Shown in pieces: positions 4,632 to 52,607 of a stretch of 64,000 bases of DNA. A program made the position numbers and the translations under genes. Each line of letters starts with the position of its first letter. The stretch's first letter is position 1. This DNA is from Vicinamibacterales bacterium. Its GTDB lineage: Bacteria > Acidobacteriota > Vicinamibacteria > Vicinamibacterales > 2-12-FULL-66-21. The notes under the pieces were generated by a model. It did not search any database, was not told the DNA's origin, and saw only the letters and a list, made by a program, of their open reading frames with translations. The stretch spans positions 67,374 through 131,373 of the forward strand of contig JBMDXQ010000067.1 of NCBI GenBank assembly GCA_048594975.1, given 5' to 3'.

Positions 4632-4662
4632 GTGCTGAATGACGAATGCTGAGTGCCGAACG
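4632..4662. repeat. YGAATGC-type heptamer arm (degenerate left arm of inverted-repeat element A)
   Basis: The sequence GTGCTGAATGACGAATGCTGAGTGCCGAACG is the reverse-complement type of the arm at 4795-4836. Confidence 0.7.
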
Positions 4663-4752
4663 ATCAAGGCCTGGCCGGCGGATGCCCGATGAGCCGGCGG
4701 AGGGCACCGGTATTGCGAGAAAACAGGCCATACGGCGTCGGCCTGACGGGTT

Positions 4753-4784
4753 TTCGGCAGTTCGGCAGTTCGGCCGTTCAGCCC
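4753..4784. repeat. 8-nt tandem repeat TTCGGCAG x4 (last copies degenerate)
   Basis: The sequence ttcggcag ttcggcag ttcggccg ttcagccc reads directly into the heptamer arm. Confidence 0.7.
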
Positions 4785-4794
4785 GCAATCAGGC

Positions 4795-4836
4795 GTTCAG
4801 CATTCGGCATTCGGCATTCGGCATTCGGCATTGACA
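4795..4836. repeat. GCATTCG heptamer arm ending GCATTGACA (right arm of element A)
   Basis: The sequence is GTTCAGCATTCGGCATTCGGCATTCGGCATTCGGCATTGACA. It ends 11 nt before the nuoB ATG. Confidence 0.85.
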
Positions 4837-4847
4837 AGGATCAGTGA

Positions 4848-5372
4848 ATGCTGAACAACCGCTTCGAAGACAACATCATCACGACGAACCTCGACAAGGT
4901 CCTCAACTGGGCCCGGCTGTCGTCCATCTGGCCGATGGGGTTCGGGCTTGCGTGCTGCGCCATCGAGATGATGGCGACCGCGGCATCGCGCTTCGACCTG
5001 TCGCGGTTCGGCATGGAGATCATGCGCGCCTCACCGCGCCAGTCGGACCTGATGATCGTCGCCGGCACGGTCACGAAGAAGATGGCCCCCGTGCTGCGGC
5101 GGCTCTACGACCAGATGCCCGAGCCAAAGTGGGTCGTCTCGATGGGCAGCTGCTCGAACGCCGGCGGCCCGTTCCCGACCTACAGCGTGCTGCAGGGCGT
5201 CGACAAGGTCGTGCCCGTCGACGTGTACGTGTCTGGCTGCCCGCCGCGGCCCGAGGCGCTCCTCTACGGGCTCATGCGGCTGCAGGACAAGATCCGGCGC
5301 GAGGGCCGCGTGCTGCGCAAGGAGAGCACCGTCGCTGAACGGACCGCGGCCGCCGCGCGCGCGGCAGTGTAG
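4848..5372 (+). CDS. nuoB: NADH-quinone oxidoreductase subunit B
   Basis: Contains [25 protein letters not shown] and GCPPRPEAL, the conserved Cys motifs of NuoB/NQO6 (cluster N2). AAGGA lies 7 nt upstream of the ATG. Confidence 0.9.
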
Positions 5373-7687: not shown

Positions 7688-8176
7688 CTACTGCCTGCCT
7701 TCCAGCGCCCGCCGCGCCTTCAGTCGTTCCTCGCGCCGCACCTGCGCCTCAGCGGCGCGCTGCCGCTCGGCTTCGGTCTCGAGCCGCAGCCCGGGAATGG
7801 GCAGCCGGTTGCCGTCGCGATCGATCGACACGAAGGTCAGATAGGCGCGGCTGGTCAGCCGCCGCACGCCGGTCAGCGTCTCTTCGGAGAAGACCTCGAC
7901 TTCGACCTCCAGCGACGTGCTCCAGACGGCGGTCACGACCGACCTGAGGATGATGAGATCGCCCACCTTGATCGGGTGCAGGAACTGCAGCCCGTCGACC
8001 GCGGCGGTCACTAGCAGCGTCCGCGTGTGGCGGTGGCACGCGATCGCGCCGGCGATGTCGATGAGGTGCATGACCGTGCCGCCGAGGATGAACCCGAGGG
8101 GGTTGGCATCGTTGGGCAGGACGACCTGCACCATCTCCGTCGCCGACTCAGAGGGTTTCTTCGCTGGCGCTGTCAT
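7688..8176 (-). CDS. acyl-CoA thioesterase (hotdog fold)
   Basis: The stretch VLPNDANPLGFILGGTVMHLIDIAGAIAC...LQFLHPIKVGDLI is typical of YciA/BFIT-type thioesterases. 162 aa. Confidence 0.8.
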   Translation of the reverse strand: MTAPAKKPSESATEMVQVVLPNDANPLGFILGGTVMHLIDIAGAIACHRHTRTLLVTAAVDGLQFLHPIKVGDLIILRSVVTAVWSTSLEVEVEVFSEETLTGVRRLTSRAYLTFVSIDRDGNRLPIPGLRLETEAERQRAAEAQVRREERLKARRALEGRQ

Positions 8177-8183
8177 CGTCCCG

Positions 8184-8276
8184 TGTCAATGCCGAATGAC
8201 GAATGGTGAATGCCGAACAGACGCTCACGCGCTGCGCGTTCATTCGCCATTCGGCATTCGTCATTCAGCATTGACA
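8184..8276. repeat. inverted-repeat element B (archetype): two GCATTCR-heptamer arms with TGTCAATGC / GCATTGACA termini
   Basis: Left arm 8184-8218: TGTCAATGCCGAATGACGAATGGTGAATGCCGAAC. Right arm 8238-8276: GTTCATTCGCCATTCGGCATTCGTCATTCAGCATTGACA. The loop is 19 nt. The outer 21 nt are complementary at 20/21. Confidence 0.9.
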
Positions 8277-8280
8277 AGCG

Positions 8281-8544
8281 TCAGTTCCCACAATGGCGGT
8301 CGACGAAGGCCTTCAATGTACAGCGGAGTTCGGGCGGGAGATCCTCTTCCTTGATGGAGCGGAGCAGCGAGAGGGTACAGCGGTAAGTCCTGAGCTGCGC
8401 GACGCAGCGGGGGCACGCCGAGAGGTGGCGTTCCAGGCGGCCGTGGACGTCGGCCGGCAGCCGGCCCTCCACGAAGTCCGCGAGGAGCGCCACCAGGTCC
8501 GTGCAGCGCGAGGCCTTGTGAGTCACGACGGCCTCCCGCTGCAC
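8281..8544 (-). CDS. small zf-HC2 (anti-sigma-factor-type zinc finger) protein without TM segment
   Basis: 87 aa. The stretch CTDLVALLADFVEGRL...RLERHLSACPRCVAQL matches the zf-HC2 pattern. GTG start. Confidence 0.6.
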   Translation of the reverse strand: MQREAVVTHKASRCTDLVALLADFVEGRLPADVHGRLERHLSACPRCVAQLRTYRCTLSLLRSIKEEDLPPELRCTLKAFVDRHCGN

Positions 8545-11826: not shown

Positions 11827-12044
11827 GTTTCACCTCGGGTAGCGACGGGCAGGTCGTCTGCTGGTCGCGATGTTACTGTAGCTAAGACGGTTGTCGCAAC
11901 GACAACGTCCCCTCCAGGGCGGGTCGCCCGAGATCAGCAAGTCACGTGCCTGCCGCCGAGCTCGAAATCCGGGCACGCGGCAGCCGTGGCCCTGAAAAAG
12001 TGTCCCCCGCGCCGCACATCCGTCCTCCTTTGTAGAAGGATGTC

Positions 12045-12235
12045 TCGCCTCGGGACTCGGCAGTCGGGCCGCGGCGCTTGGGATCGCTCGGCGCTCGGGC
12101 TCGGGGGTCGGGCTCGGGGTTCGACGCTCGGCGCTTGGGATTCGGTTTGGGGATTACGGATTCAGGATCAGCCATCAGGGATTCAGGATTATTCAGGATC
12201 AGGGATGATCAGGGATTAGAGATCAGGGATTGTAC
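12045..12235. repeat. ~190-nt tract of degenerate 7-nt tandem repeats (CTCGGGN drifting to GGATTCA / TCAGGGA), single orientation
   Basis: NYGG recurs at 12050, 12057, 12064, 12071, 12078, 12088, 12095, 12108, 12121, 12128, 12135 and 12142. It is followed by GGATTAC GGATTCA GGATCAG ... GATCAGG GATTGTA. Confidence 0.8.
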
Positions 12236-23885: not shown

Positions 23886-23922
23886 GCAATGCTGAATGCT
23901 AAATGCTGAATGCTGAATGCCG
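23886..23922. repeat. YGAATGC heptamer arm (left arm of element C)
   Basis: The sequence GCAATGCTGAATGCTAAATGCTGAATGCTGAATGCCG lies immediately after the RBP stop codon. Confidence 0.85.
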
Positions 23923-23966
23923 TGATGAGTGACTAAAGGCCGCCCTTGACGGCGGAGCGTAACGGG

Positions 23967-24004
23967 AAGGCCGGCGCCTACGGGCCGCCGGCCTTTTTCT
24001 TGTT
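23967..24004 (+). terminator. Rho-independent terminator of the RNA-binding protein gene
   Basis: A 10-bp stem AAGGCCGGCG / CGCCGGCCTT and a 9-nt loop are followed by TTTTCTTGTTT. It is the only clear stem-plus-T-tract structure in the window. Confidence 0.75.
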
Positions 24005-24020
24005 TAGCTCACTTGCCCGA

Positions 24021-24085
24021 GCATTCGGTCCCGCGTCCAGAGGTCGGCATTCAGCACTGACCCGCGCCATTCGTCCACTGACACG
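24021..24085. repeat. degenerate GCATTCR arm (right arm of element C)
   Basis: The sequence is GCATTCGGtcccgcgtccagaggtcGGCATTCAGCACTGACccgcGCCATTCGTCCACTGACA. It is eroded relative to the other copies. Confidence 0.5.
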
Positions 24086-41515: not shown

Positions 41516-42214
41516 TTACGTCCGTGCCGCGGCGATGAACCGTGCCGCGAACTCCGGGCCGAGCCCCTGCTCCTCGTGCTTGAAGTAAACGAACGCGTCG
41601 GTCACCGGGAGCCCGCGCACCACCTTCGCCCAGCGCTCCAGGTCGGCCTGCTGATACCCCTCGTCGCGCAGCCGGCAGTACGCGTAATCGGCCGTCGTCT
41701 CGATCGGCGTCGAAAGCTTCTCGCTGTCGGCGATGCACAACGCGAGGTTGCGGTTCCGCAGAACATCGTACACCGCCGGGTCGAACCAGGAGGCGTGGCG
41801 GAACTCGAAGGCAGCGCGCAGGCCTTCGGAAATCCCCTCGACGAAGCTGCGCAGCACGTCGACGTCTTGCTTGAAGGTGGGCGGCAGCTGGAAGAGCAGC
41901 GCGGCGAGCTTCGGGCCGAGCGTCCGCGCGGTGCGGCAGAAGGCCTGCAGCGCGTCCTCGCAATGACGGAGCTTCGCGTCGTGGGTGATGCGGCGCGGCG
42001 CCTTCAACGTGAACGAGAAATGCTCGGGCGTCGCACCCGCCCACGCCGCGAGCTGCTTCTCGGTCGGCATGCGGTAGAACGTGTAGTTGATCTCGACCGT
42101 CGGCAGCCGCTCGGCATAGTAGGCCAGCATCTTGTCGGTGCTGAACCTCTCCGGGTAGAACGTCCCGCGCCACTCGGGGTAGTTGTAGCCGGAGGTGCCT
42201 ACCAGGATCTGCAT
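41516..42214 (-). CDS. DUF72 (UPF0759) family protein
   Basis: Starts MQILVGTSGYNYPEWRGTFYPE...VEINYTFYRMP, the characteristic DUF72 N-terminus. Confidence 0.85.
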   Translation of the reverse strand: MQILVGTSGYNYPEWRGTFYPERFSTDKMLAYYAERLPTVEINYTFYRMPTEKQLAAWAGATPEHFSFTLKAPRRITHDAKLRHCEDALQAFCRTARTLGPKLAALLFQLPPTFKQDVDVLRSFVEGISEGLRAAFEFRHASWFDPAVYDVLRNRNLALCIADSEKLSTPIETTADYAYCRLRDEGYQQADLERWAKVVRGLPVTDAFVYFKHEEQGLGPEFAARFIAAART

Positions 42215-42216
42215 CG

Positions 42217-42901
42217 TGTCAATGCTGAATGCTGAATGCCGAATGCTGAACGCCGAATGCGTCGGTCAGTGTAGCAGGAACTGCGTGCTCTTCTTCCGGC
42301 GATCGTGCAGTTCCTGTGCACAGGGAGGCGCGGACCAGCCTCAGTCAACAGGGTGGCTGCACGAGACGTGCGTTACTGCAGACATGTCTCCGCCGTACGA
42401 TATCCAGGCGCGTGCCTTCGAGTTCGCTGTGCAGGTCGTTTTGCTCTTCCAACAGCTACCGACGGCCGATGAGAGCACATGCATCCTCGTCAGACAGCTG
42501 CTGGATGCGGCAACATCCGTCGGCGCCAACCTCGACGAGACTGACGGGGGGCACACAAAGCCGGACGTCCGGGCGAAACTCGCCACCGCTCGGAAGGAGG
42601 CGAAGAAGAGCGTCTAGGCTTCGGCTGATCGCCGCGACGGACGCGCCATTCCGTGCGCGCGTCGTGCCACTGCTCGCCGCGGCCAATCAGATTGCGTCCA
42701 TCATCACGGCCATCAAGCGGAATCCGAGAGGAACAACCATCGCGGTGGCGTTGGAGTGCAGGCACTCCGGGACGCCGACCGCCCGTCGGCATCGGCATTC
42801 GGCTCATTCAGCATTCGTATTCAGCATTCAGCATTATTCAGCATTCGCATTCCGCATTCGCATTCCATTCGGCATTCGTCATTCAGCATTCGGCATTGAC
42901 A
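42217..42901. mobile_element. composite inverted-repeat cassette: GCATTCR-heptamer arms (42217-42260 and 42795-42901) enclosing a four-helix-bundle protein gene
   Basis: The left end is TGTCAATGCTGAATGCTGAATGCCGAATGC.... The right end is ...GCATTCGTCATTCAGCATTCGGCATTGACA, with about 15 units. The termini match those of the gene-less copies elsewhere in the window. Mobility itself is inferred, not shown. Confidence 0.45.
42384..42726 (+). pseudogene. four-helix-bundle protein (23S rRNA intervening-sequence protein / Avd-like family), apparent +1 frameshift
   Basis: Frame A reads MSPPYDIQARAFEFAVQVVLLFQQLP...ILVRQLLDAATSVGANLDE...KLATARKEAKKSV and stops at 42615-42617. The family-typical continuation ...RLRLIAATDAPF...LLAAANQIASIITAIKRN is in the +1 frame. 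The switch falls in the GAAGAAGAG run near 42603-42612. Confidence 0.7.
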
Positions 42902-43868
42902 GAGTCTCGTTCACAAACTCCATGATCCGCTCCTCCGCCCAGTAACAGTCGCGTCCATCCCCGCCGGTGGTCACGAACCCGCAGTGGCCGCCGTGCCGCG
43001 TGACGAGCAGCGTGATGTTCGGGTTCGAGGTCAGTCGCCGATCGCGGAACGGGGCAAGCGGGACGAACGGGTCGTCTTCCGCGGTGATGATCAGCGTCGG
43101 CACGCGCGCGCGGTCGATCACCCGGGCGGCGCTGACCCTGAAGTAGTAGTCGTCCGCGCCGGCGAAGCCGAAGTGCGGCGCGGTGATGCGTTCGTCGAAC
43201 TCGCGGACGGTGCGGATCCCGTGCAGCCGATCGAGCGGAAAGCGCTCGGGGTGCGTCCGCGCCTTCCGCCGCATGCGGCGCTTCAGGCCGCGGACGAAGT
43301 TCCACTGGTAGACGACGTTCTGGCGGCGCTCGAGCGCGCGGACGCATTCCCCGACCTCGAGGATCGGGGACACCGCGCAGACGGCGCGCAGCGCCGGCGG
43401 AGAAGCGCCGCCGAAGTCGCCCGCCAGCTTCAGCGCCAGGTTGCCGCCGAGCGAGTAGCCGGCGACCACGACGCGGTCGATCCCCTCGGCGGCGAGCTCG
43501 GCGACGACGTGCGCCGCGTCCTCGGTCAGCCCCGAGTGGTACAGCGTGTCAGACAGCTCCTCGGTCCCGCCGCAGTTCCGCTGGTTGAGGAGGAGGACGT
43601 TCAGACCGGCGGCAAACGCCTTCTCGGCGAGGCCGCGCATGTAGTGCGCCGCGCTCGACCCCTCGAGCCCGTGCAGCGCCAGCAGCGCCGGATGGCGCGG
43701 CGGGTCCGCCTGCCAGTGGCAGTGGGCGAGCACCCGCGTGCCCGGGGCGACGTCGAAATAGCGATCGGCAGGCGGCGGCAGCCGGGGGAAGCGCCGCGGC
43801 TTCCCCCAGGCGTAAAGCGTCATGACGTGGCCGTTGCGCAGCCCGCGTCGGGGCACGAAGTCGATCAT
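42879..43868 (-). CDS. alpha/beta hydrolase, YheT/ABHD1-3-like
   Basis: Contains ALHGLEGSSAAHYMRGL and VVAGYSLGGNLALKLAG (GxSxG). The last codons (...SMPNAE) and the TGA stop are encoded by the heptamer repeat arm. Confidence 0.8.
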   Translation of the reverse strand: MIDFVPRRGLRNGHVMTLYAWGKPRRFPRLPPPADRYFDVAPGTRVLAHCHWQADPPRHPALLALHGLEGSSAAHYMRGLAEKAFAAGLNVLLLNQRNCGGTEELSDTLYHSGLTEDAAHVVAELAAEGIDRVVVAGYSLGGNLALKLAGDFGGASPPALRAVCAVSPILEVGECVRALERRQNVVYQWNFVRGLKRRMRRKARTHPERFPLDRLHGIRTVREFDERITAPHFGFAGADDYYFRVSAARVIDRARVPTLIITAEDDPFVPLAPFRDRRLTSNPNITLLVTRHGGHCGFVTTGGDGRDCYWAEERIMEFVNETLSMPNAE

Positions 43869-45850: not shown

Positions 45851-45882
45851 TGTCAATGCTGAATGCTGAATGCCGAATGCTG
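45851..45882. repeat. solo YGAATGC heptamer arm with TGTCAATGC terminus (element E)
   Basis: The sequence is TGTCAATGCTGAATGCTGAATGCCGAATGCTG. It lies 24 nt upstream of the DinB-family ATG, and no partner arm is visible. Confidence 0.8.
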
Positions 45883-45888
45883 GGGTGT

Positions 45889-45927
45889 GCACGTCGACGT
45901 CCAGTGGCGTGCAGGAAGTCGACGTGC
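45889..45927 (-). terminator. hairpin downstream of the BNR-protein gene (terminator-like, no U-tract)
   Basis: The stem GCACGTCGAC (45889-45898) / GTCGACGTGC (45918-45927) is a perfect 10 bp with a 19-nt loop. It lies 30 nt after the stop at 45957. Confidence 0.35.
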
Positions 45928-49710: not shown

Positions 49711-49862
49711 GTGTCCTCTTCATTCGGTGCGCCTGGGGCCCCACATTCCTTGATGCCTTGATGCGCCGGCCCCCCCCGGGCGCTGCCCCGTCGCGCGCCG
49801 TGGCGGCTGAAGGCTCTCACGCGCCACTTACGCGCGCTGCCTGCGCGGCGGATGTCGCCTGG

Positions 49863-49915
49863 CAATCCACAATCAGGCAATCCGGCGCAATCCACAATCC
49901 TCAATCCCCAATCAC
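49863..49915. repeat. CAATCCN heptamer tandem array (7-8 units)
   Basis: The run is CAATCCA CAATCAG GCAATCC GGCG CAATCCA CAATCCT CAATCCC CAATCAC. It begins at the TPM-gene stop codon (49912-49914). Confidence 0.8.
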
Positions 49916-50739
49916 CAGGATCCGGAAGCCCCCCCTCCTCCCGACCGTCCGCCCCCGAAGCCCCCGAAGCCGCCGCCGCCGAACCCGCCCCCCCCGAAGC
50001 CGCCGAACCCGCCGCCGAAACGGCCGCCGCCGAAAGGGCCGACGCCGCTGTCCCATCCGCTCCACGGGCCGCCGACGATCCACGGCCCACGGCGGCGGCG
50101 CCGCCGAGGCCCGCCCATGCGACCGAGCAGGCTGAGCACGATCAACGCGATGACGACGATCAGACCGACGGGCAGCCCGGAGCCACGTGGTTCGGCCGGC
50201 GCGTGCCTCCGCGGTACGTCCTGGAGCGTGGTGCCGCGGCGCTCGGCGATGCGGTTGATGACGCGGGTTGTCGCGGCGAGAATGCCGCCGCTGTAGTCCC
50301 CGGCCGCGAACCGCGGCCGCATCACCGAACGGATCGTGTCACCGGCGAAGCCGTCGGTGATGAACGCCTCGAGGTCGTAGCCGGTCTCGATGCGGGCGCG
50401 CCGATCGTCGACCGCGACGACGATCAGCAGGCCGTTGTCCTTCCCGCGTGCCCCGATGCCGCGGCCGCCGTTTTCGAACATCTTCAACGCGTACGACTCG
50501 ATGTCGTACGGTGCAGTGGTGCGCACCGTCGCGACGACCACGACGTCCCCCGATGCCGCCTGCAGCGCGCGGATCCGCCGGTCGAGCACCCGTTCGGAGT
50601 CGGCGTCGATGACGTTCGCGAAGTCGTTCACCGGCGCTGTGAGGACAGGAGGGTCCTGGGCGCTGACGATGGCAATGCCGAATGCTGCATGCAGAATGCT
50701 GAACGCGAGCACGCTGCGAAGGCTCAGGACTCCCCACAT
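49912..50739 (-). CDS. TPM-domain (YgcG-like) protein with TM segment and Gly-rich tail
   Basis: The TPM core reads VNDFANVIDADSERVLDRRIRALQAASGDVVVVATV...NGLLIVVAVDDRRARIETGYDLE. It has a TM (LPVGLIVVIALIVLSLL) and a GGGFGGFGGG tail. ATG 50739 is chosen. Confidence 0.85.
   Translation of the reverse strand: MWGVLSLRSVLAFSILHAAFGIAIVSAQDPPVLTAPVNDFANVIDADSERVLDRRIRALQAASGDVVVVATVRTTAPYDIESYALKMFENGGRGIGARGKDNGLLIVVAVDDRRARIETGYDLEAFITDGFAGDTIRSVMRPRFAAGDYSGGILAATTRVINRIAERRGTTLQDVPRRHAPAEPRGSGLPVGLIVVIALIVLSLLGRMGGPRRRRRRGPWIVGGPWSGWDSGVGPFGGGRFGGGFGGFGGGGFGGGGFGGFGGGRSGGGGASGSW
50672..50704. repeat. YGAATGC heptamer arm lying inside the TPM signal-peptide coding region (left arm of element F)
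   Basis: The sequence GCAATGCCGAATGCTGCATGCAGAATGCTGAAC encodes, on the minus strand, ...AFSILHAAFGIA.... Confidence 0.8.
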
Positions 50740-50756
50740 CGTCCGCCGCTCAACAA

Positions 50757-50796
50757 TCAGCATTCCGCGTTCGGCATTCAGCATTCAGCATCTGAC
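50757..50796. repeat. GCATTCR heptamer arm (right arm of element F)
   Basis: The sequence is TCAGCATTCCGCGTTCGGCATTCAGCATTCAGCATCTGAC. It lies between the TPM start and the stop of the upstream gene. Confidence 0.8.
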
Positions 50797-50809: not shown

Positions 50810-51457
50810 TCACTTCCAGCCATCGACGTAGCCCCAGATGCGCTCGACGGCGGCGACGTAGCGGGCGAGCAGCGCCGAGGGCTCCGCGATCGTGTTCACC
50901 GAGGACAGCTCCTGCACGAGGCTGCGGTCGTCCTCGGCGACCGCCGCGGGGGCGAGACGCTCCAGGTTGCGCAGCAGCGCCCTGTACGCGGGGGTGGATC
51001 CGGCGATGAGCCGCGCGAGGTCGTCGGCGCGTCCCTGCGTCTCGAGAAACCCTTCGCGCAGGTGAATGAGGTGGCTCTTCGCCTGTGCCTCGACGGCGCG
51101 CCGCAGATCCGCGTCCCGCACGGCGCAGCCGGGGAACGGGCTGGTGCCAGCGACGACGACGTGATCGTCGATGATGGCGCCGTACTCGATCGGGAACACG
51201 TCGAGCGTCCGCAGGAACTCGTACCGCGACAGGATCAGCGGCGTTGCCAGCCCATCGCGGTGCCAGTCGCCGGTGAGCGGGATGCACGCCGCCAGATCGG
51301 CAAAGGTGAGTTCGCCGACCAGCGCGAGCGAGTGGAGCGGCCGGTCGGCGCCGTAGGCGACCACCGACTCCAGGCGGCCGCCGAAGACGCGCCGCAGATC
51401 GGCCGCAAGACGATCAAGCGCGGCCCGCTCGGTCGAGTTCAAGGCCAGCGAAGCCAT
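50810..51457 (-). CDS. hypothetical protein, degenerate nucleotidyltransferase-like N-terminus + helical C-terminal domain
   Basis: 215 aa. The stretch LDRLAADLRRVFGGRLESVVAYGADRPL resembles the minimal-NTase strand-helix context but lacks the G[SG] and DxD signature. This is a weak call. Confidence 0.4.
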   Translation of the reverse strand: MASLALNSTERAALDRLAADLRRVFGGRLESVVAYGADRPLHSLALVGELTFADLAACIPLTGDWHRDGLATPLILSRYEFLRTLDVFPIEYGAIIDDHVVVAGTSPFPGCAVRDADLRRAVEAQAKSHLIHLREGFLETQGRADDLARLIAGSTPAYRALLRNLERLAPAAVAEDDRSLVQELSSVNTIAEPSALLARYVAAVERIWGYVDGWK

Positions 51458-51594: not shown

Positions 51595-52557
51595 ATGCAA
51601 CTGCGCACACTGAACATCGGCTGCTTCGGCGGCGGCACCGGGCTGCCCAGCCTGCTGGGAGGGCTGAAGTCGAACCCCTGGCTGCAGCTGAACGCCGTGG
51701 TGACGATGTTCGACAGCGGCGGTAGCTCCGGTCAGCTGCGCGACGAGCTCGGCGTCCTGCCGCCGGGCGACGTCCTGCGCTGCGCGCTGGCCCTGGCCCG
51801 CAACGAACGCGAGGCGCGCCGGGTGCTGCTCTCGCGGCTGCCGACGCTGGAGCACCGGCGGCTCGGCGGCCACACCGGCGGCAACCTGCTGCTGTCGATG
51901 ATGGAGCGCTACAGCGGCGATTTCCTCGCCGCCGTCGAAGGCCTGCGCGCGCTCCTCGGGTGTGCCGGCCGCGTCTGGCCGGTGAGCGTCCAGCAGGCCA
52001 GCCTGTGCGCCGAATACGGCGACGGCACGAGCACGCGCGGCGAAGTGGAGGTCGATGCCGGGCAGAGCGCCGGCAACGTGATCACGCGCCTGTGGCTCGA
52101 GCCCGACGTGCAGCTGCACGAGGCGGCGGCCGCGGCCATCCCGCGGTTCGAGGCGGCGGTCATCGGTCCGGGCAGCTTCTACACCAGCCTGATGCCGATC
52201 TTCCTGGTCCGCGGCGCGGTCGAGGCGGTGCGGCAGGTCAAGGGGCCGCTGGTGCTCGTCACCAACCTGCTGACCGAGGGGCGCGGGATGTGGCACTTCA
52301 CCGCCGCCGAGGAGGTCCGTCAGATCGGGCGGACGATCGGACGGCCGATCGACGTTGCCATCGTCAACACCGCCCGGCCTCCGGAGGCGACTCTCGCCAG
52401 GTACGCCGAGGAACACAAGCTGCCGCTCGCGATCGGCGATCTCCCGCCCCACTGCGAGGTGGTCACCGGCGAGTTCTGGTGCGGCGACATCGCCCGCCAC
52501 GACCGGCGTCGTCTCGCGCAGGCCGTGTGGGCGGTGTTGGCGAAGCGGTTGCTTTAG
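51595..52557 (+). CDS. YvcK/CofD-family (UPF0052, gluconeogenesis-factor-like) protein
   Basis: Contains IGCFGGGTGLPSLLGGLK, VTMFDSGGSSGQLRDELGVLPPGD and IGPGSFYTSLMPIFLV. GAGGG lies upstream of ATG 51595. Confidence 0.85.
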   Translation: MQLRTLNIGCFGGGTGLPSLLGGLKSNPWLQLNAVVTMFDSGGSSGQLRDELGVLPPGDVLRCALALARNEREARRVLLSRLPTLEHRRLGGHTGGNLLLSMMERYSGDFLAAVEGLRALLGCAGRVWPVSVQQASLCAEYGDGTSTRGEVEVDAGQSAGNVITRLWLEPDVQLHEAAAAAIPRFEAAVIGPGSFYTSLMPIFLVRGAVEAVRQVKGPLVLVTNLLTEGRGMWHFTAAEEVRQIGRTIGRPIDVAIVNTARPPEATLARYAEEHKLPLAIGDLPPHCEVVTGEFWCGDIARHDRRRLAQAVWAVLAKRLL

Positions 52558-52607
52558 CCGCGTGCCTAACGTAGCCACGTGCTTCACGTGCAACGTGCCA
52601 CGTGCGG
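52558..52607. repeat. CACGTGC-type 7-9-nt tandem repeats
   Basis: The run is CCGCGTGC CTAACGTAG CCACGTGC TTCACGTGC AACGTGC CACGTGC GG. It lies between the yvcK-like stop and the DUF4920 start. Confidence 0.75.

Follow-up and report, generated by a model that had tools for sequence, protein, structure and literature searches.

We analysed a 64-kb stretch of a contig from a Vicinamibacterales bacterium (hereafter the window; 69% G+C), which carries six dispersed hairpin loci whose arms are tandem GCATTCR heptamers. We consider it probable, at roughly 60%, that these hairpins are the Vicinamibacterales version of passenger elements that occur across phyla, resemble the intervening sequences (IVSs) of rRNA and ride on operon transcripts. 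In the best reading of the data, the complete element is a gene of the PF05635 family within two inverted arrays of about 4–5 heptamers, and the short hairpins are copies of it without an open reading frame (ORF). The elements lie in short spacers between genes, almost never in divergent ones.

PF05635 genes lie between the arms of the long copies

An earlier, sequence-only reading of the window had taken the locus at 42217-42901 (E4) for a mere hairpin; it overlooked a broken PF05635 gene inside, and hence also the link to rRNA intervening sequences. After repair, the E4 protein matched PF05635 ('23S rRNA-intervening sequence protein') in Pfam with E = 1e-12, and in tblastn P0003, P0018 and others matched the gene in two segments. 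An intact homologue of 127 amino acids is encoded within the 621-nt element L009 7199-7819 (PF05635, E = 2.5e-16; TIGR02436 'four helix bundle protein', E = 8.5e-22). Arms of the TGTCAATGC/GCATTGAC type stood on every available flank of further close homologues (L058, L066, L135-137, L138 and L139), bringing the total to 7/7 among the close homologues with readable DNA; no Vicinamibacterales-clade PF05635 gene without arms was found in this set.

These data bear on the possibility that the hairpins are an independent family and that the PF05635 cassette, mobile in its own right, inserts into their loops, the arms being its target and no part of the cassette. A precedent for such behaviour is the insertion of IS1397 and ISKpn1 into REP/BIME loops, and the large excess of hairpins without an ORF, as well as a leader in L138 and L139 that suggests an internal organisation of the cassette's own, would agree with it. 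We regard this explanation as improbable, because armless genes were not found in the clade and because heptamer arms surround PF05635 genes in every lineage examined, including 23S rRNA, where no prior heptamer hairpin is expected.

The leader in question spans about 110–125 nt between the left arm and the start of the four-helix-bundle gene (L138 1400-1500, L139 1370-1500 and L135 1230-1344). A TTCTGCGTACTTTC-like motif is shared by the L138 and L139 leaders, L135 has TGCGTAC instead, and the leader might serve as an internal promoter or in regulation. L139 1270-3402 and window 41516-43868 also share a DUF72 gene (74.5% identity) and a hydrolase gene (71%), and the cassette abuts the DUF72 start in both. 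Gene order and orientation differ, being four-helix bundle (+), DUF72 (+), hydrolase (−) in L139 and DUF72 (−), four-helix bundle (+), hydrolase (−) in the window, which suggests that rearrangements have had the inverted arms as their breakpoints.

The family is large, with more than 6,600 database clusters matching a single Xanthomonas PF05635 query at E ≤ 1e-15. Structures were solved in 2006–2007; to our knowledge, no function is known for the family beyond that of Avd, its homologue in diversity-generating retroelements (DGRs).

The architecture recurs across phyla with other heptamers

The hairpins had been called lineage-specific, a view that did not survive a wider comparison, since the same architecture with other heptamers surrounds PF05635 genes in metagenomes, gut Bacteroidales and Xanthomonas. 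A metagenome scan with the L009 protein returned 77 loci at 33–60% identity and 32–67% G+C, and in most of them the best inverted repeat between the flanks of the gene was a tandem heptamer array. The heptamers varied by lineage (AATGACA/AATGACC/AATGTCA, AATTTGA, AATGTTG, TAAACNC, AAATCCC and AAGACNN). Period 7 was essentially the sole tandem period beside PF05635 genes; it was present upstream at 26/64 and downstream at 29/64 loci, compared with 12/411 control windows. Inverted period-7 arms with at least three exact shared heptamers were found in 22/47 testable clusters (58 after dereplication), compared with 2/199 random pseudo-genes, and many of the loci scored negative were visibly heptameric but degenerate. 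The arrays typically comprised 4.4–4.7 periods, that is, five AATG or AATT cores, with units mostly of the form AATGNNN/AATTNNN.

The orientation of the neighbouring genes was strongly biased: the upstream neighbour was co-oriented with the PF05635 gene at all 27 scorable loci and the downstream neighbour at 23 of them, with gaps of about 40–150 nt, roughly the size of an arm. Elsewhere in the PF05635 loci, 25 arrays of the same type without an ORF were found in 142 kb, a density like that of the window (11 arms in 64 kb). A gut Bacteroidales locus had the order lysS, PF05635, gpsA, and its protein matched PDB 2RLD with E = 2.5e-35; the PDB relatives 2RLD and 2GSC each contain five chains. The lysS gene of this locus ends within an arm, which encodes its final residues and stop (…SNVEC and stop, L114 2930-2953), just as a window arm encodes the end of the hydrolase gene (…SMPNAE and stop, 42879-42901). 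Published reports also place PF05635 genes between gmk and nadD (Flavobacterium) and between cmr3 and cmr2 (Pleurocapsa; PMC3936711), and describe strain-specific ones in Arthrospira.

A search of the whole window against Rfam gave no match at gathering thresholds, and 20 related PF05635 loci yielded one tRNA alone and no rRNA. The elements are therefore not a described RNA family, and those loci do not lie in rRNA. In L126/L127 (2860-2900), the arms hold TCAGTTA/GTCAGTG units; TCAGTTA is the reverse complement of the published TAACTGA repeat, which may belong to the same class.

In Xanthomonas, the dispersed heptamer is the heptamer around the PF05635 gene

The reading predicts that the dispersed heptamer family of a genome is the heptamer found around its PF05635 gene. 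We checked this prediction in Xanthomonas, where a gene of the XCC0516 type (PDB 2GSC) lies in sense orientation between accB and accC in both X. campestris and X. citri. Its arms are inverted arrays of four GGGAATN units (GGGAATC GGGAGTG GAGAATC GGGAATC versus the mirror), identical at 25/30 positions, with mismatches at the seventh positions in all four units, and they paired with each other in a fold of the full 448-nt insert. The heptamer of these arms is that of the published dispersed GGGAATC family. Rehm et al. (2015; PMC4692102) counted 186 such repeats in X. campestris and 183 in X. citri; most comprised four units, and each genome had 70–75 convergent pairs. The copies were 89–93% intergenic and mostly lay between co-oriented ORFs, with only 7–8% between divergent ones. 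These authors read the repeats as G-quadruplexes and mentioned neither XCC0516 nor any other linked gene (PMC4692102).

Dispersal and polymorphism in Vicinamibacterales

We scanned species-representative genomes with TGTCAATGCYGAATGCYGAATGC; this set does not include the window's own genome, and the orthologous stretches in it were 69–84% identical to the window. An exact-sequence look-up of the thioesterase next to the archetype gave no record. The scan gave 57 loci from 11 species, all Vicinamibacterales/Acidobacteriota subdivision-6 metagenome-assembled genomes (MAGs), 27 of the loci coming from one MAG. Three further contigs, from two 'Verrucomicrobia' MAGs and one uncultured isolate, were 94–96% identical to one another. 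Most copies were compact hairpins of 46–174 nt, copies without an ORF being far more numerous than those with one, and arm polarity was identical in every paired copy. An arm consisted of the terminal unit and typically 3–4 in-register units, with a sharp decay beyond.

The siting was equally regular. A gene boundary lay within 45 nt of 79 of the 90 arm termini that had enough flanking sequence, with 38 termini facing a start codon (median about 13 nt) and 41 facing a stop codon (median 5 nt). Thirteen Vicinamibacterales hairpins had both neighbours called; seven of these lay between co-directional genes, six between convergent genes and none between divergent genes. Reading inward, stop codons closed two or three frames in 71/97 arms (73%), compared with 7% of random 37-mers. 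A start codon was fused to the terminus as GCATTGACATG in 6–7 loci (L008 1803, L023 769, L038 4591, L040 7412, L045 2769, L052 7452 and L055 613; the L040 and L045 copies are orthologous), so that a Shine-Dalgarno sequence has no space and cutting of the stem could yield leaderless mRNAs. Frequently, AAGGATCA and then the start codon followed directly past the terminus, as in the NuoB-like gene of the window and in L010, L042 and L047.

A comparison of orthologous sites, which the earlier reading had proposed as a check, revealed presence/absence polymorphism. The S10 ribosomal-protein operon was compared in three species with flanks 76–90% identical. The rplW–rplB spacer held a 46-nt GCATTCR hairpin in the first species, was empty in the second (TAAGGATCATG), and in the third was occupied by a hairpin built from CCAACTN, likewise with a TGTCAAC end. 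A second spacer was filled in the first two species and empty in the third. The rpsC–rplP spacer was filled in all three, with a GATTTNN, an AGTCCNN and a GAATGCN hairpin, respectively. The E3 locus of the window is orthologous to an element in another species (L049 2564-2693), so some copies are old. Unit number also varied: one solo arm had 3, 3 and 5 units in the contigs that are 94–96% identical.

Part of this variation could be expected if the repeats arose in situ by replication slippage and were kept by the host as mRNA-stabilising or processing hairpins, as translational insulators or, where G-rich, as quadruplexes, with PF05635 an occasional neighbour. The unit numbers that differ between near-identical contigs, the three heptamers at one orthologous spacer, the missing conserved interior, the absence of a visible target-site duplication, the stop-rich arms abutting start codons and the case made by Rehm et al. 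for G-quadruplexes in Xanthomonas all agree with such an origin. We nevertheless judge it unlikely as a full account. The non-repeat terminus TGTCAATGC is conserved in about 100 arms from at least 11 species, the arms are strictly paired in inverted orientation, and empty orthologous sites exist. In addition, all seven genes of one PF05635 clade carry arms, and the same unit of gene plus arms occurs inside Coxiella rRNA. The quadruplex version meets a further obstacle, as AATGCYG arms cannot form G-quadruplexes.

In another Vicinamibacterales MAG, the nuoA–nuoB spacer (L013 4485-4585, minus strand) carries two direct arrays, GGTGAATGGTCAGY and GATCAGC, which run from the nuoA stop and are not inverted. 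The NuoB-like gene behind E1 in the window is 77–78% identical to the nuoB gene of L013.

Design, folding and siting of the six window loci

All six loci were found by direct inspection and by an independent scan at the positions given earlier (Table 1). The motif was strongly enriched: with at most one mismatch, the GCATTCR doublet GCATTCRGCATTCR had 31 matches in the 64-kb window compared with 0.09 expected from dinucleotide shuffles, and TGTCAATGC had 6 compared with 0.19. Arm polarity was constant, the left arm being TGTCAATGC(YGAATGC)n and the right arm (GCATTCR)nGCATTGACA, with the conserved ends facing outward; we write the heptamer here as AATGCYG, with TGTCA as the cap. The claim that the outer ends are conserved held for the overall design but not for loci one, three and six, where the termini are degenerate. 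The terminus pattern had no match in a phage collection.

The RNA of the archetype (E2, folded as 8180-8280) had a predicted energy of −54 kcal/mol (z = −7.75), which none of 200 shuffles equalled; its DNA fold was at −35.2 kcal/mol (z = −7.25). The stem consists of 6-bp helices with single mismatches between them. Direct inspection of the sequence confirmed that 20 of the outer 21 nt are paired, and the 19-nt loop first assigned to this hairpin had to be given up, as the stem extends further inward.

Table 1. Hairpin elements of the window, their arms and the gene inside E4 (units are heptamers)
Feature	Position	Strand	Description
E1	4632-4836		Flanked by ferredoxin and NuoB-like genes, both +
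E1 left arm	4632..4662		3 degenerate units, terminus TGTCCGTGC; starts 9 nt past the ferredoxin stop
E1 right arm	4785..4836		(GCATTCG)x5, GCATTGACA, then AAGGATCAGTGA and the NuoB-like ATG at 4848; interior 128 nt
E2 (archetype)	8184-8276		93 nt; flanked by zf-HC2 anti-sigma and 4HBT thioesterase genes, both −; without ORF
E2 left arm	8184..8217		7 nt before the thioesterase start codon (minus strand)
E2 right arm	8236..8276		Separated by 4 nt from the zf-HC2 anti-sigma stop codon (minus strand)
E3	23886-24085		Flanked by convergent RRM-protein and ABC-ATPase genes
E3 left arm	23886..23922		7 nt past the stop of the RRM-protein gene; ortholog in another species (L049 2564-2693)
E3 right arm	24021..24085		Eroded; directly adjoins the stop codon of the ABC ATPase gene, which is convergent
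E4	42217-42901		685 nt; flanked by alpha/beta hydrolase and DUF72 genes, both −
E4 left arm	42217..42260		Terminus 2 nt from the DUF72 start (minus strand, 42214)
Broken PF05635/TIGR02436 four-helix-bundle gene	42384..42740	+	In-frame TAG closes the N-terminal part (42384-42617); C-terminal part in the +1 frame from about 42628
E4 right arm	42795..42901		About 14 units with indels, terminus GCATTGACA; holds the last codons and stop (42879-42881) of the alpha/beta hydrolase gene
E5 solo arm	45851..45882		TGTCAATGC and 3 units; DinB starts 24 nt away; no recognisable partner arm
E6	50672-50796		Flanked by two minus-strand genes
E6 left arm	50672..50704		Degenerate terminus TGGCAATGC; within the coding sequence of a TPM-domain gene, signal-peptide region
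E6 right arm	50757..50796		Terminus GCATCTGAC, degenerate; upstream gene 50810..51457 (minus strand) ends 14 nt away

Genes were mapped by G+C content at third codon positions (GC3) and their domains assigned with Pfam. This confirmed the DUF72, 4HBT thioesterase, NuoB-like and DinB neighbours and corrected the gene upstream of the first locus to a ferredoxin gene; the distances of 2, 7, 11 and 24 nt from arm to start codon proved correct. Five of the six window elements lie between co-directional genes and none between divergent ones. The statement that all copies sit at gene boundaries was right in that these are real dispersed boundary hairpins; it was too strict for the arm at 50672-50704, which lies inside the TPM-domain coding sequence, and for the arm at 42795-42901, which contains the hydrolase stop. 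The E6 left arm (50672-50739, minus strand) is translated as residues ~12–23 (…AFSILHAAFGIA…) of a signal peptide, with the TPM domain starting at residue 37, and here repeat DNA appears to have been recruited into the coding N-terminus.

Could the hairpins be ordinary cis signals, either intrinsic terminators or outward promoters with the terminal TTGACA as the −35 box? The terminus GCATTGACA does present TTGACA outward at both ends, and terminator-like hairpins occur in the interiors of E1, E3 and L049. A scan of the archetype region (8000-8500) found 0 terminator-like sites and no sigma-70-like promoter, and inspection of the sequence showed no T-run after the archetype arms; on these grounds an intrinsic terminator was rejected. 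Start codons 0–24 nt from the terminus are too close for a −35 box, and the arms of other lineages lack TTGACA. Cis signals of this kind are, in our estimate, a barely credible explanation.

The terminator-like structures, GC-rich hairpins followed by a T-run, lie within some copies without an ORF (window 4663-4784 and 23923-24020; L049 2599-2647), where the arms appear to bracket an ordinary terminator. Immediately after the solo arm E5 there is a GC-rich palindrome, GCACGTCGAC…GTCGACGTGC (45883-45925). Other intergenic short tandem families occur at window 12040-12230, 49860-49920, 4753-4790 and 52555-52605 (CGCTCGG; GGGATTC/GGATCAG; complement-like CAATCCN; TTCGGCAG; ACGTGCN), which indicates that the genome carries several heptamer families and not one. 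The GGGATTC/GGATCAG repeats resemble the GGGAATC type of Xanthomonas.

Proposed mechanism

By analogy with Coxiella, the element would be co-transcribed with its host operon, and its arms would pair in the RNA to form a stem of about 30 bp, a series of 6-bp helices in which every seventh position is free. RNase III may then cut this stem as it cuts the Coxiella IVS, so that the insert would be excised and the flanking cistrons separated. The arms, rich in TGA when read inward, would stop incoming translation; as they often end just before the Shine-Dalgarno sequence or start codon of the next gene, insertion within an operon would stay tolerable. We further speculate that one four-helix-bundle homopentamer docks on each array of 4–5 heptamers, one subunit per heptamer. 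This idea goes with the five chains in each of 2RLD and 2GSC, the words 'five four-helix bundles' in the title of Lin et al. (2006) and the pentamer of Avd.

Several points weigh against the interpretation of the hairpins as IVS-like passengers. Its co-transcription and RNase III steps are inferred from Coxiella, and protein binding is speculative. The seventh position of paired units showed no covariation (40/68 Watson-Crick pairs compared with 35.9 expected, p = 0.21), which leaves the stem without independent support from compensatory change, and in a comparison of sense and antisense RNA stem stability only seven hairpins were usable, splitting 3 to 4. A conserved interior was not found, the loops of 31 short copies sharing short heptamer-like words only, and no target-site duplication was visible at two filled/empty orthologous sites, the only two that were comparable. 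Any copy-and-paste mobility is thus putative, and in-situ slippage could explain part of the pattern. No mobility enzyme was identified. The PF05635 copy of the window is itself broken and antisense to its neighbours, and the strict arm criterion detected arms at only about half of the PF05635 loci. The seventh position is free: it lacks covariation, and each of the four Xanthomonas units has a mismatch there. This agrees with a 6-nt core as the recognised part and with a stem that is interrupted at 7-nt intervals.

A broader proposal, which we put forward tentatively and hold to be somewhat doubtful, is that PF05635 proteins bind heptamer arrays in a sequence-specific manner (one homopentamer per about five heptamers) and that they form, together with the arms, a hitherto unrecognised class of pan-bacterial selfish elements riding on operons. 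Copies without an ORF would then be the intergenic heptamer repeats (GGGAATC in Xanthomonas, probably STRR/TAACTGA, and the window family), and the members in rRNA would be the classical ORF-bearing IVSs.

Novelty and significance

Heptamer repeats, ORF-bearing IVSs and the PF05635 fold are already known. In the searchable part of the literature, which is incomplete, we found no link of PF05635 genes outside rRNA to inverted heptamer arrays or to sense siting in operons, and no account of dispersed heptamer hairpins as the ORF-less form of a PF05635 cassette. Within the same material, the window family would be the first such family described for Acidobacteriota. rRNA intervening sequences, PF05635 proteins and dispersed heptamer repeats have remained unexplained and unconnected for decades; our data indicate that all three belong to a single type of element. 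What PF05635 proteins and bacterial heptamer repeats do thereby becomes directly testable. Elements inside core operons (accB–accC, rplW–rplB, rpsC–rplP and lysS–gpsA) may shape mRNA processing and translational coupling. Annotation is affected as well, because arms encode the ends of genes (stop codons and C-terminal residues) and even a stretch of signal peptide.

Comparison with known systems

The earlier description of the hairpins as REP-like or MITE-like was not borne out: the cargo is a four-helix-bundle gene and not a RAYT or DDE transposase gene, the short copies lack a conserved core, and no target-site duplication is visible at the two filled/empty sites compared. The hairpins do share with REP/BIME/REPIN sequences their abundance as intergenic hairpins of about 100 nt, the apparent lack of target-site duplication and the location between convergent or co-directional genes. 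One may therefore suppose that they are REP/REPIN-type repeats mobilised in trans by a RAYT (an IS200/IS605-like Y1 transposase) encoded elsewhere; the hairpin doublets of about 100 nt, the variable interiors and a mobility without target-site duplication, as in the IS200/IS605 type, would suit this. We hold it to be highly improbable. The unit is not a 20–40-nt imperfect palindrome with a conserved head tetranucleotide, the arms being 3–5 tandem heptamers plus TGTCA. The gene between the arms was PF05635, a four-helix bundle without known catalytic activity, in 7/7 long copies and never a transposase, so a RAYT flanked by the same repeats was rejected. No transposase domain was found in the 10 arm-flanking window genes, which were the genes scanned in window and genome. 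A classical MITE was likewise rejected, as 31 copies showed no conserved interior and the autonomous-looking copies encode PF05635 and not a transposase.

Avd is a pentameric nucleic-acid-binding four-helix bundle (PDB 4DWL). It is homologous to PF05635 (PMC10053308). Unlike in DGRs, no reverse transcriptase was present among the called and Pfam-annotated neighbours examined, a statement that covers these neighbours and not a systematic search for reverse transcriptases or template/variable repeats. Heptamer arms are not a known feature of DGRs.

The likeness to cyanobacterial STRR heptamers, noted in the sequence-only reading, was apt. The window family has the traits of the STRR/GGGAATC/TAACTGA class, namely dispersed tandem 7-nt units of variable number in intergenic positions near gene ends. 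STRR (cyanobacteria) and TAACTGA (Beggiatoaceae, cyanobacteria and Bacteroidetes) are likewise intergenic tandem heptamers near start codons, with stop-containing units and several heptamer types per genome (MacGregor, 2015; PMC4679880). They differ in being described mainly as direct repeats, with one inverted case in the Maribeggiatoa genome, and no linked protein has been reported (PMC4679880). The GGGAATC/GGGNATC repeats of Xanthomonas and Nostoc are also tandem heptamers, typically fourfold, about 90% intergenic and located between co-oriented ORFs with few divergent cases (PMC4692102); they differ from the window family in unit sequence and in the quadruplex reading, which AATGCYG units cannot fulfil.

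A close counterpart is the ORF-bearing 23S rRNA IVS of Coxiella and Leptospira, which has a PF05635 ORF, terminal inverted repeats that form a long stem, an ORF in sense orientation within the host transcript, and versions without an ORF. Conserved-ORF intervening sequences of rRNA were reportedly first described in 1993. The Coxiella IVS is 428 nt long and carries a PF05635 (S23p) ORF (Warrier et al., 2016; PMC4990558). Its 28-bp terminal stem is cut by RNase III in vitro, and the ends have been mapped in vivo; its 5' part contains 2–3 tandem GACAGAT units, the number varying between strains, and the 5' cut falls at the first repeat (PMC4990558). Strain-variable tandem heptamers in an arm are thus a further likeness (PMC4990558). 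Release from the precursor RNA by RNase III is established for Coxiella and other rRNA IVSs (PMC4990558). The elements described here differ in lying between protein-coding genes and not in rRNA helices, and in having many copies per genome, mostly without an ORF. Insertion into a 23S/16S rRNA helix was not seen, given the lack of an Rfam match in the window, the protein-coding neighbours and 0/20 related loci in rRNA. The PF05635 protein is encoded by the long copies and absent from the short hairpins, including the archetype, and inverted arms, which pair into a stem in the folds of the archetype and of the Xanthomonas insert, are present at every paired copy. That gene and heptamer arms also occur together within the rRNA of Coxiella argues that the arms travel with the gene and are not a pre-existing target.

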